From the IMG/VR virus record IMGVR_UViG_3300020045_018018, positions 1 through 41,719 of that record: a stretch of 41,719 nt of DNA. One strand, 5' to 3'. The stretch comes from a virus. Its lineage: Duplodnaviria; Caudoviricetes. Below, piece by piece: positions 1-39,206 of this stretch. The first letter of the stretch is position 1; each line of letters starts with the position of its first letter. A program made the position numbers and the translations under genes. Under the pieces are notes generated by a model, which worked only from the letters and a program-made list of their open reading frames with translations, made no database searches and was not told where the DNA came from.

Positions 1-159
1 CACCGCGTTGACAGATAACACCAGGTCACTAAACTTTGTGTCGTACTTGCACACGTCAGACTCTAGCCTTGCCAACCTCGACAGCATTTCAGGCAGCCTG
101 CGCCGCTCTTGAAACAATTCCGCTGACTCTGGGTCGTCATTGTGCCTAGGGGGTACCAC
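1..159 (-). CDS. Partial hypothetical protein downstream of lysozyme (runs off window edge)
   Basis: Open frame from GTG at 159 to the edge, overlapping the lysozyme end: MVPPRHNDDPESAELFQERRRLPEMLSRLARLESDVCKYDTKFSDLVLSVNAV; not in ORF track. Confidence 0.5.
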   Translation of the reverse strand, partial: MVPPRHNDDPESAELFQERRRLPEMLSRLARLESDVCKYDTKFSDLVLSVNAV

Positions 160-616
160 TAAACATTCCCGTCCGCATTTGTTCAGCAAGTTCTACTGCG
201 CGGCCTTTGACTTGTTTTGCCCATTTGCTTTGCAGCATGGCGTCACCGGCATTGTCAAAATCACCATGCTCTATAAGTCCGAGCGTGCGCTTAAACTTCA
301 TAAGCCCAGGGATACCCAAATTAAAAGACATGTTAATAAGTACCGCCTGCCTTGCCTCATTAAGCCTGATAATCCAGGGAATACGTTGATAAAGCTCTTT
401 AGTATCATTAGCAACTATCGATTTCAATAACTGTTCGGCTCTAACTTGTGATACGCCAAGCGTTTTCATTGCTTGTAAGTCATGCTCTGAAAGTCTAAGC
501 GGATTAGCGGAAAGTGAATACCCATAACCAATAGTCAATACACCTTCTGAGCAATAATACGGATGCGAGCGGAATCCTTCATGCCGTTTTAGTTGAGCAA
601 TGCCTTCTGGACTCAT
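146..616 (-). CDS. Phage lysozyme/endolysin (GH24, T4-lysozyme-like)
   Basis: LKRHEGFRSHPYYCSEGVLTIGYG catalytic segment, RQAVLINMSFNLG and SKWAKQVKGRA motifs. Confidence 0.93.
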   Translation of the reverse strand: MSPEGIAQLKRHEGFRSHPYYCSEGVLTIGYGYSLSANPLRLSEHDLQAMKTLGVSQVRAEQLLKSIVANDTKELYQRIPWIIRLNEARQAVLINMSFNLGIPGLMKFKRTLGLIEHGDFDNAGDAMLQSKWAKQVKGRAVELAEQMRTGMFSGTP

Positions 617-873
617 AACCCAAGCTTTCCCGTCGATCCGGTTGTAATATAGATATTAATAGCCCCCAGTAATCCTGCTGATGCTTGAATCAAGTCAGGC
701 GTTAATATTGCCGCCAAGCCGGGTACAAACGAAGAAGCTACCCCGGCTCCAGCAACGGCCAAATTCAAATAATTCTGAAAGACCTTCCATGCCTTTGGTT
801 CTGCAAAAGCTTGCCCGGCCTTCAAAACATTAATTATCGACATTATTTTATTCCTTTCTATGGTTTCTGACAT
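613..873 (-). CDS. Small hydrophobic protein, putative holin
   Basis: Two hydrophobic segments; ATGA overlap with the lysozyme start. Confidence 0.55.
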   Translation of the reverse strand: MSETIERNKIMSIINVLKAGQAFAEPKAWKVFQNYLNLAVAGAGVASSFVPGLAAILTPDLIQASAGLLGAINIYITTGSTGKLGL

Positions 874-37259: not shown

Positions 37260-37284
37260 GCCGGGAGATTAACAGGCTCCCGGC
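37260..37284. other. Strong intergenic hairpin
   Basis: GCCGGGAG-9 nt-CTCCCGGC perfect 8-bp inverted repeat, no U tract. Confidence 0.6.
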
Positions 37285-37400
37285 ATAGATTACTTAAATC
37301 AAAAAAACACTTTACTATTGTATTATCTCAAAATTTTCACTCACACGAAGTTACTTTTTTGAGTTTTGACCAAAATTAAATTAATAACTTTTTAAATAAA

Positions 37401-37577
37401 TTAATCACTTGAATCAACCTTATAAACATATCCGCAAATTTCGCAGGAATATTCAGTTAAACATTTCCCGATTTCCTTAATGTTTCTTTCGTGTTTTAAT
37501 TCTCTACATTTTAAAACCTCATCCGGTACATGATCCCAGCCATTTTGATAACCGAGATCAAGATAAATATTTTCCAT
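37401..37577 (-). CDS. Small Zn-ribbon-like protein (58 aa)
   Basis: MENIYLDLGYQNGW...KC...H...CEICGYVYKVDSSD; RBS AAGGAG. Confidence 0.7.
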   Translation of the reverse strand: MENIYLDLGYQNGWDHVPDEVLKCRELKHERNIKEIGKCLTEYSCEICGYVYKVDSSD

Positions 37578-37593
37578 AAACTATTACTCCTTA

Positions 37594-37923
37594 TTAAAAT
37601 ATTTTATTTAAAATTTCATCAAATGCTTTATTATGCTGGTCAATCATATAAAGAAAATTATTTATGCTTATTTCTACTCTACCGACAAAAAAACCGTATG
37701 CTAATAGTTTAACAGAATTAAGATATATTCTTTCTTTTTCAGCATGCTCCTTTACCCAGTCAAGACCATCTTTACCAGAGCAATATGTATGTATTTCCAT
37801 TTCTTTCTTTTGGATTTCATTATCAATCGAATAAATATTTTTCCCTTCACTAAAATTTGAAAAATATAAACATAAATGCTCATAAGTTTTTCCCTCCTTT
37901 TCTAACTTACAAAATTTTTCCAT
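37594..37923 (-). CDS. Hypothetical protein
   Basis: RBS GGGAG. Confidence 0.7.
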   Translation of the reverse strand: MEKFCKLEKEGKTYEHLCLYFSNFSEGKNIYSIDNEIQKKEMEIHTYCSGKDGLDWVKEHAEKERIYLNSVKLLAYGFFVGRVEISINNFLYMIDQHNKAFDEILNKIF

Positions 37924-37988
37924 ATAACTCCCTTAATTACATAAATTATTTTGTACTTTTTATTATTATACTTTTTACTTTTTTTTAA

Positions 37989-38130
37989 TTAAATAGTTAA
38001 GTTCTAATAATGCCATCACATTATAACCGTTAGTTACTGGAGATTCCCTTACGGTACTCTGTCTCAAGTATAACGCCAGTTTTGAACTGGTTAATCGACT
38101 TTATTTCTAAAGCCTAACTTTCTATTTCAA
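37989..38130 (-). ncRNA. Multibranched structured RNA immediately 3' of the hammerhead
   Basis: Closing stem plus four hairpins, including GAAA and GUAA tetraloops and an AGUA/GAA loop-E motif. Confidence 0.65.
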
Positions 38131-38217
38131 TCAGCGATCTGGTCGGCAGGCGTGGAGAGATATTCCGAGATTCTCACGTCTAACCAGATTTCGTCCTTAT
38201 AGACTCATCAGGCTGAT
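38130..38217 (-). ncRNA. Type I hammerhead ribozyme
   Basis: AUCAGC-CUGAUGA-GUCU(AUAA)GGAC-GAAA-UCUGGUU...GACCAGA-UC-GCUGAU; all core nucleotides and three stems present; AUC triplet, predicted cut 38136/38135. Confidence 0.93.
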
Positions 38218-38312
38218 GTTTCTTTTTTTATCTTTTTGATAATAAAAATAAATACTACTACTGCGATAATAATTGCTAAACCAATCGCAATAAATAATCC
38301 ATATTCATTCAT
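38208..38312 (-). CDS. Small single-TM peptide (34 aa) ending in the hammerhead core
   Basis: MNEYGLFIAIGLAIIIAVVVFIFIIKKIKKETSA; RBS AAGGAG. Confidence 0.7.
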   Translation of the reverse strand: MNEYGLFIAIGLAIIIAVVVFIFIIKKIKKETSA

Positions 38313-38334
38313 AATTACTCCTTTATATGATTTA

Positions 38335-38589
38335 TTATTTTAATCCAGTTACTTTAAAATTTCTTCTTGTAAAATAATTAACTAATATATTTTTTGAATT
38401 ATTAGGTATCCATTTATCATTTATTAAAGAAGAACCAACATCTTTCTTAAAGAAAAAAAGACCTTTTTCTTTATTATATGCTGCATATTTAATAACATAT
38501 TCAAACTCATGTTTTGTTAAACGTCCAGATACATAGAAGCAGTCTTGAGTATCTTGTATCGTTACAGTTAAACTATTGTTTGTTTTCAT
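38335..38589 (-). CDS. Hypothetical protein
   Basis: AAGGAGTTGAAA before ATG 38589. Confidence 0.7.
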   Translation of the reverse strand: MKTNNSLTVTIQDTQDCFYVSGRLTKHEFEYVIKYAAYNKEKGLFFFKKDVGSSLINDKWIPNNSKNILVNYFTRRNFKVTGLK

Positions 38590-38617
38590 TTTCAACTCCT
38601 TTATATAGTTTTTTATA

Positions 38618-38890
38618 TTATCCAAAAATTAAAAAACTTAAACTTTCATTGTTTTTAATACTTTTTAAAACACGTATAAGAGTATGTTTGCCCAATCTTC
38701 TTATATGACCATCATAGGCATCATCAATTTCTATTATATTCCATCTATTTCTTGTATGATAAAAATGTAATTTTTCGTACCATTCACTGTGACCTTCAAA
38801 ATATTTGTTAGTTATATCATAATGTGTAGAAGGCAATTCATCCCTTATCAAATCACTTAAATTTGTAGAACTTAATTTACTATAATTCAT
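38618..38890 (-). CDS. Hypothetical protein, first gene after a strong early promoter
   Basis: AAGGAGTTGAAA before ATG 38890. Confidence 0.7.
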   Translation of the reverse strand: MNYSKLSSTNLSDLIRDELPSTHYDITNKYFEGHSEWYEKLHFYHTRNRWNIIEIDDAYDGHIRRLGKHTLIRVLKSIKNNESLSFLIFG

Positions 38891-38928
38891 TTTCAACTCC
38901 TTTGGATAATTTCTTATCCTTATAATTA

Positions 38929-38957
38929 AGTATAGTTCTTTATTTACATTTTGTCAA
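38929..38957 (-). promoter_or_regulatory. Near-consensus sigma70 promoter (leftward)
   Basis: TTGACA-17 bp-TATACT. Confidence 0.8.
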
Positions 38958-39017
38958 CAAAATAATAAATTATTCAAATTGTGTTTGTGATTGATTTCAC
39001 ATTATCTGTGTGTTTTA

Positions 39018-39206
39018 TCACAATAAATCTTTAAATTTTTTCCCTGGTTTTTCTGGATTTTCTTCCCAAAGTTTAGCTTTTAGTTCCAATTCTGCAAATT
39101 CTTTTTGAAGTTCGGCAAAATTTATACCTTCAAATGTAACTTTTTGTTTGTTTTTGGTTAATTCTGGTTCAGGGGATTCATCGATGTTATCAAATAATGT
39201 TTTCAT
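39018..39206 (-). CDS. Hypothetical protein
   Basis: Follows the MTase gene directly. Confidence 0.6.
   Translation of the reverse strand: MKTLFDNIDESPEPELTKNKQKVTFEGINFAELQKEFAELELKAKLWEENPEKPGKKFKDLL

Follow-up and report, generated by a model that had tools for sequence, protein, structure and literature searches.

Hammerhead ribozymes have been described flanking single genes in prophages, with the identity of the gene varying, and arrays of phage hammerheads cleave in vitro and in E. coli; the accessible text of the same study proposes that long transcripts are processed into gene-length messages (Perreault 2011; PMC3088659). The term 'stop codon' does not occur in its main text. According to the available part of another account (PMC6765202), the chemistry of the product ends is established for the hammerhead class and the cellular role of phage hammerheads is still open. 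The locus analysed here resembles the hammerheads of Perreault 2011 in its consensus core, its three stems, its phage setting and its position between small genes. Unlike the clusters of that study, it holds a single motif, which is of type I, has a 52-nt stem III and carries an AUC cleavage site. Its type I order also distinguishes it from RF00008, among the Rfam hammerhead families (clan CL00010), whose model is of type III. A short reading frame ends in the ribozyme core, and its product shares a short hydrophobic helix and a basic C-terminus with type I toxin–antitoxin peptides, as these are outlined in the accessible portion of PMC8309996; unlike those systems, the locus shows no antisense RNA signals and no family match, and the ribosome site is open and lies within an operon. 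What is new is a clean hammerhead locus that belongs to an already known class.

The hammerhead locus and its setting

The window (by which we mean the whole stretch of DNA analysed) is a virus record of 41,719 bases. It encodes a terminase, a major head protein and a primase, and its completeness is estimated at 90%. Relatives of its terminase, at 44–56% identity, come chiefly from Brachyspira, Treponema and other spirochaete records, and 23 of the 28 genome loci related by terminase bear spirochaete-type names. Because these relatives lie mostly in spirochaete records, we infer that the host of the phage is likely to be a spirochaete. Small minus-strand genes in a row surround the hammerhead. 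Judged from its sequence, the promoter-like site upstream, the highest-scoring within 37300–39100, is probably where the transcript through the locus begins, with the reservation that such sites occur overall at chance level (12 found versus 12.4 expected). The gene that follows the locus gave no homologs, no family matches and no usable Atlas match. The features are as follows.

38929..38957, minus strand: sigma70-like promoter, TTGACA-17-TATACT, 11/12 matches
38318..38324, minus strand: Shine–Dalgarno sequence AAAGGAG, 5 nt before the ATG; predicted unpaired with probability 0.79–0.97
38208..38312, minus strand: 34-aa ORF; its stop UGA (38210–38208) is core positions 4–6
38205..38207, minus strand: second in-frame UGA in the sequence, core positions 7–9
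38212..38217, minus strand: stem I 5' strand AUCAGC, inside the Thr-Ser-Ala codons; pairs with GCUGAU over 6 bp
38189..38211, minus strand: hammerhead core, comprising CUGAUGA (38211–38205), stem II and GAAA (38192–38189)
38193..38204, minus strand: stem II GUCU/GGAC, 4 bp including one G-U; loop AUAA
38137..38189, minus strand: stem III, span 52 nt, -15.2 kcal/mol; would remain attached to the upstream product as its 3' end
38135..38136, minus strand: predicted cleavage site between 38136 and 38135, after AUC; U16.1 is 38137 and C17 is 38136
38130..38135, minus strand: stem I 3' strand GCUGAU, the opening six bases of the 3' product
37594..37934, minus strand: 109-aa ORF of unknown function, the next gene, with Shine–Dalgarno sequence AAGGGAG (37934–37928)

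The minus strand contains a complete type I hammerhead with stems I, II and III of 6, 4 and 8 bp. It has the CUGANGA...GAAA...NUH core with intact core-adjacent pairs, and helix I is open. The proximal helix of stem III pairs AUCUGGUU with GACCAGAU over 8 bp, and the distal helices (AGACGUG/CACGCCU and GAGA/UCUC) contain one A-C mismatch and one bulge. The cleavage triplet AUC (38138–38136) fits NUH and differs from the usual GUC. The hammerhead is both the minimum-energy and the centroid fold of 38225–38125, its region has a G+C content of 0.49 against 0.32 for the genome, and it is the only type I match in the 41.7-kb record; none of 300 dinucleotide-shuffled windows gave a match with stems of at least 6/4/5. 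These results bear out the preliminary description, which had reported a complete type I hammerhead with an extended stem III, and the U16.1/C17 assignment places the predicted cut at the same position as was expected there. Rfam yielded no matches in the window at the gathering score. The best match, to RF00008 (Hammerhead_3), reached 18 bits where the cut-off is 48.5 (E 2.8), with the core, stem II and GAAA aligned, and the miss is likely due to the type I order and the long stem III. No Watson–Crick pseudoknot helix of at least 6 bp was found for loop II; by analogy with the contact described in the available part of PMC6155905, the U at 1.7 and the A-rich loop II could form a reverse Hoogsteen pair. 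Judged by its sequence, the motif is a consensus hammerhead that likely self-cleaves.

Searches with the locus against 50,697 phage records by blastn returned only short chance matches, none covering more than 13% of the query, and blastn against five spirochaete genomes only short AT-rich matches. The exact pattern of core and stem III had no match in viral contigs, and homolog searches with the peptide and the neighbouring genes found only the queries themselves. The terminase-related set comprises 38 viral and 28 genome loci (66 in all), which are distant (44–56% identity) and many of them fragments. The core pattern was absent from all 29 records searched for the 38 viral loci, and a structural scan of the 66 gave three weak variant-core matches that are not convincing. 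A loose core pattern in 301 spirochaete-phylum genomes matched at a rate near that of its reversed control and is uninformative. No homolog was found in these searches, so purifying selection on the locus is unsupported.

Several other elements of the window were noted in passing. Downstream of the locus, G+C-rich hairpins at 37284–37260 and about 36897–36880 (minus strand) lie in gaps between the small genes and are possibly weak terminators or processing sites. A 66-codon hydrophobic ORF (36763–36563, minus strand), led by AAAGGAG, comes after a 31-aa hydrophobic ORF (36855–36760); it starts with CTG and is overlooked with standard start codons. Towards the left end, an ORF that we take to be lysozyme-like and its small neighbour (146–873, minus strand) have a codon use of higher G+C than the remaining record and may be a foreign or misjoined piece. 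Three tRNA-like elements occur on the minus strand (28471–28348, 28250–28142 and 27440–27297), with 7-bp acceptor-like stems, long inserted arms, non-standard anticodon regions and a U run after each; the first two have a canonical-looking T arm, and a plain long hairpin lies at about 28320–28258 (minus strand). ARAGORN and Rfam at the gathering score did not call these elements, and the first T arm resembled tmRNA weakly (E 0.021).

Stop codons in the cores of phage hammerheads

The 34-aa ORF is a gene call in the source collection, where its cluster has one member, and its ribosome site lies 22 nt past the stop of the preceding gene. Its end reads ACA UCA GCC UGA UGA, so that the frame from 38312 to 38208 runs through stem I and stops inside the core, as the preliminary description had stated. 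The core motif carries UGA in one of the three frames, and UGA UGA when position 7 is U; an ORF that runs into a U7 core in this frame therefore acquires a double stop. For the same reason the overlap, while real, is not independent evidence.

How often such an overlap arises was estimated in IMG/VR with one fixed core pattern, which gave 126 matches in 123 loci from about 730 stretches. Sixteen matches were excluded because their structure was incomplete or too little sequence lay upstream, and a further 11 as redundant, leaving a non-redundant set of 75 type I and 24 type III motifs. Upstream ORFs were called heuristically, by a start codon, a ribosome site and 30 aa, or by 60 open codons. 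The nearest upstream ORF stopped at the core UGA in 13 of the 75 type I motifs and at most 9 nt before the core, in the 5' arm, in another 23, so that the stop lay in the core or 5' arm in 36/75. It lay 10–30 nt before the core in 7, farther away in 18, and no ORF was found for 14. Among the type III motifs the stop was in the core in 3/24. The stop offsets pile up at -9, -8, -3 and +1, a distribution in which the core is not singled out. Where an ORF with a ribosome site entered the core, it was in the stop frame in 10 cases and in each of the two open frames once; this comparison is biased because the open frames would place the ribozyme inside the gene. The frame counts thus say no more than that genes stop in the core or ahead of it, which is what avoidance of cuts within genes would predict.

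The window's motif has the 6-bp stem I, the 4-bp stem II and the upstream ORF ending in the core that are found among the surveyed type I motifs, and in one of them (locus L160) the ORF ends with the same Ser-Ala-stop codons. It differs from them in its strongly hydrophobic upstream product, in its longer stem III (it spans 52 nt, where the survey median is 15 and 4/75 reach at least 40) and in its triplet (AUC in 3/75, GUC in 63/75), and none of them is followed by the fold predicted here downstream of the cut. The 13 proteins that end in the core are mutually unrelated and mostly soluble; none reached a hydropathy of 2.5 (highest 2.41). Since the in-core stop is common in the survey and is not tied to membrane peptides there, neither the stop nor its pairing with such a peptide points to a special device, and the impression first formed, that the three-part arrangement is unusual, is not supported. 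In the titles and abstracts of the open-access literature searched, no natural phage hammerhead is described as having a stop codon in its core, and the accessible parts of bioRxiv 10.1101/2025.04.24.650125, PMC5737381 and PMC8637638 contain nothing that bears on it. The overlap is absent from the titles and abstracts searched yet common in phage contigs, and it is best explained by tight packing. Two further features of surveyed type I hammerheads were seen by eye: in L146 and L153 the 3' product opens with tRNA-like sequence, and in L044, L085 and L110 it opens with a hairpin that reuses the 3' strand of stem I.

We favour, with a probability of about 0.62, a reading in which the ribozyme punctuates a phage operon in the ordinary way, from a position as near to the stop codon as possible. 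Transcription from the promoter near 38930 would run through the small genes, and the long minus-strand message would be cut once, 72 nt past the stop codon, while it is being made or shortly afterwards. The upstream piece would retain the whole ORF with its stop, so that no non-stop message would arise, and would end in the -15 kcal/mol hairpin of stem III with a cyclic phosphate. The downstream piece would open with the closed five-way fold, its first base bearing a 5' hydroxyl, and continue into the 109-aa gene and its followers. Both pieces would thus end or begin in a stable fold, and both product ends would probably be protected by these folds. Such a cut would part the peptide message from the folded region and the genes that lie downstream, as had been proposed from the start, and this much of the first proposal is supported. 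The ribozyme must follow the end of the gene, and stop codons come free with its core and 5' arm; this would account for the stop in the core, which is the tightest packing possible. Several features speak against simple punctuation: the downstream fold is more complex than the protection of an end would call for, the motif is single, unlike the clustered classic cases, the locus has no homolog in the searches above, AUC sites may cut less well during transcription, and stem I is predicted to be improbable in longer transcripts.

The predicted fold downstream of the putative cut

The region that would form the start of the downstream piece is predicted to fold as follows.

37986..38133, minus strand: predicted closed five-way-junction RNA, about 150 nt, -35.2 kcal/mol, z -3.0 (opposite strand z -1.7)
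from the third base past the cut, minus strand: predicted outer helix of the five-way junction
38114–38097, minus strand: predicted hairpin with a GAAA loop
38090–38076, minus strand: predicted hairpin, which we take to be T-loop-like
38075–38028, minus strand: predicted long helix
38044..38058, minus strand: predicted AGUA/GAA internal loop with a 2-bp stem and a GUAA tetraloop, presumably a bulged-G or loop E module
38024–38007, minus strand: predicted hairpin

This predicted fold is uncatalogued and an orphan, and it is the part of the locus that deserves a second look. Rfam gave no matches over 38135–37986 at E values up to 10, ARAGORN found no tRNA or tmRNA in it, and no terminator closing its 3' end was found. 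The hairpin 38090–38076 scores as terminator-like; its tail is interrupted (CGUUAUACUU) and serves as the 5' strand of the long helix. The AGUA/GAA module occurs as a paired instance only once in the window and once more in the 66 related loci (797 kb). It is also present in group I introns and in two other phage RNAs, and this recurrence suggests a real tertiary element, to which we do not assign a family.

Pattern searches did not extend the family. Six matches to an 18-nt pattern from the fold have different folds, are mostly coding and look like chance. Patterns combining a hammerhead with the module matched 127 times in 6 viral and 120 metagenome loci, 26 of the matches being hammerhead-like, and the module was paired only in the window's own match. 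A pattern with shorter spacing found three loci, two with a paired module and otherwise not homologous; the T-loop-plus-module pattern found 41 loci that belong to other RNA classes, and the module combined with the downstream junction found none. A model built on the single window sequence (R1), whose reach is accordingly low, had no match in 150 spirochaete-phylum genomes or in 100 hammerhead loci, and among 71 sources recovered only itself. Because no homolog was found to align, the fold is without covariation support.

The searches also turned up conserved RNA-like sequences of other kinds. A motif of about 70 nt recurs between phage tRNA genes (L300, L303, L304, L306, L309, L315, L332, L333, L337 and L338, around positions 800–900); it directly follows the 3' end of a tRNA and contains the AGUA/GAA module and a likely pseudoknot. 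A stretch of about 170 nt, also with the module, is conserved in L299, L302, L312, L314, L325, L326 and L330 (around 800–960) and begins just past a promoter-like TATAAT or TATACT. Rfam made no call on either in the 20 of 41 loci scanned. A pistol ribozyme lies further along in L312 and L323.

An alternative to punctuation, although compatible with it, is that the main job of the hammerhead is to make the exact 5' end of this uncatalogued RNA of about 150 nt (38135–37986), which would act alone or as a leader that regulates the 109-aa gene, the overlap with the peptide being incidental. We regard this as a tentative and on balance unlikely reading. It is favoured by the predicted outer helix, which begins so close to the cut, by the strand specificity of the fold and by its G+C content of 0.33, against 0.15–0.26 in the flanking spacer and genes. 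The two GNRA loops and the bulged-G-type module, the latter found also in structured phage RNAs such as group I introns, point the same way. So does the layout of two other loci, L405 and L406 (400–660 in each, minus strand), where a type I hammerhead with a long stem III, showing paired changes, is followed by a conserved structured region of more than 150 nt with an AGUA/GAA-GNRA module. That region gave no useful Rfam match, and we take parts of it to be group II intron domain-like; R1 matched only the 15-nt module there (E 1.5). The lack of homologs, and hence of covariation, weighs against a dedicated maturation role, as does the lack of a terminator at the 3' end. Moreover, the borders of the fold were picked by hand, and among 115 fixed 150-nt tiles from other parts of the same strand, 4 have a z of -3 or lower.

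Ribosomes, folding and the rate of cutting

The peptide has one hydrophobic segment (residues 6–25) and a lysine-rich tail (KKIKK), and its highest 19-residue hydropathy is 3.46, which fits a small hydrophobic peptide with a predicted membrane helix. No relatives were found among 1.84 billion representatives, and its first Atlas match (0.80) is at chance level. Searches of PHROGs, Pfam and NCBIfam gave weak generic membrane-segment matches, with no toxin family and nothing near a curated cut-off. Consensus scans, which address cis-encoded and not trans-encoded antisense RNA, turned up neither promoter-like sites (37640–38790) nor terminators (37300–39100) on the plus strand, and the ribosome site is predicted to be open. 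The peptide has the shape of a type I toxin; a toxin family match, antisense signals and a hidden ribosome site were not seen. Three further hydrophobic small ORFs on the same strand are led by ribosome sites and have no ribozyme. The 34-aa product probably belongs to a set of small membrane proteins encoded along this gene run and has no particular link with the ribozyme, and a peptide-controlled toxin switch is unlikely.

In equilibrium folding, which leaves out Mg2+ and tertiary contacts, stem I has a probability of 0.91 for the motif alone, 0.60–0.65 in nascent transcripts ending at 38130–38120 and 0.00–0.28 in longer transcripts, for which a second calculation gave 0.07–0.13. By this model the active fold may be confined to a short co-transcriptional window. 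An 8-bp alternative helix pairs the 5' strand of stem III with 38094–38087, direct pairing of the AUC with the core has a probability of at most 0.03, and forcing 38222–38193 to remain unpaired abolishes stems I and II (by construction). A designed fold switch was considered and rejected. The downstream sequence lowers stem I no further than 24 of 30 shuffled versions of it; across the survey, where 71 of the 75 motifs had enough flank and 29 of these a stem I probability of at least 0.5 alone, stem I was lowered by 16/29 real and 50/87 shuffled downstream regions. A hairpin over the core was likewise rejected as a device, since 5-bp hairpins of this kind are ordinary (22/75 surveyed motifs).

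By geometry, a ribosome terminating at the stop of the 34-aa ORF would sit over stem I and the core and reach into stem II. It had been proposed on this basis that translation gates the ribozyme: the in-core stop would have been selected, and ribosomes translating the peptide would set how often the message is cut, coupling a toxin-like peptide to downstream release. The overlap is real, the ribosome site is strong and predicted to be open, and the short predicted co-transcriptional window, together with a possibly slow AUC site, would widen the effect of a ribosome. A viroid hammerhead with an AUC site cleaves well after folding and more poorly early in transcription, according to the available part of PMC1636495, and type I toxins, in the accessible text of PMC8309996, commonly combine a hydrophobic helix with a basic C-terminus. 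We nevertheless consider such gating quite unlikely. The layout is generic in phage hammerheads and is not linked to membrane peptides (0/13); the toxin family match, the antisense promoter or terminator and the hidden ribosome site were all lacking; and the competing folds are ordinary. A combined version, in which a new class of five-way RNA of about 150 nt is matured by the hammerhead and peptide-ORF ribosomes gate release of this RNA and of the downstream genes within a few seconds of transcription, because the core is the peptide's stop codon and the AUC site is slow, appears very unlikely. A recently inserted or slow hammerhead of little effect, or one that only trims 3' ends because transcripts mostly end at 38090–38076, would agree with the lack of a convincing hammerhead in related loci, the rare AUC and the terminator-like score of that hairpin, but the whole motif, core and three stems, is intact within a G+C-rich island, the related loci are distant and many are fragments, and the interrupted tail (CGUUAUACUU) is taken up by the long helix, so that we hold this reading to be highly improbable.

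With operon punctuation as the preferred reading, ribosomes finishing the peptide would briefly unfold stem I and the core and might delay the cut. Because their occupancy would be brief and the cut effectively one-way, a delay is likelier than a block, and likely a side effect, not a switch. The locus itself is no special evidence for ribosome control of cutting. Since nearly half of the surveyed type I motifs overlap an upstream stop, the effect of ribosomes on the cutting rate is a general question for phage hammerheads, and this compact locus, with its 34 codons, open ribosome site and rare AUC, is a convenient test piece for it. If the downstream fold is a functional RNA with a ribozyme-made 5' end, it would be a new orphan phage RNA.
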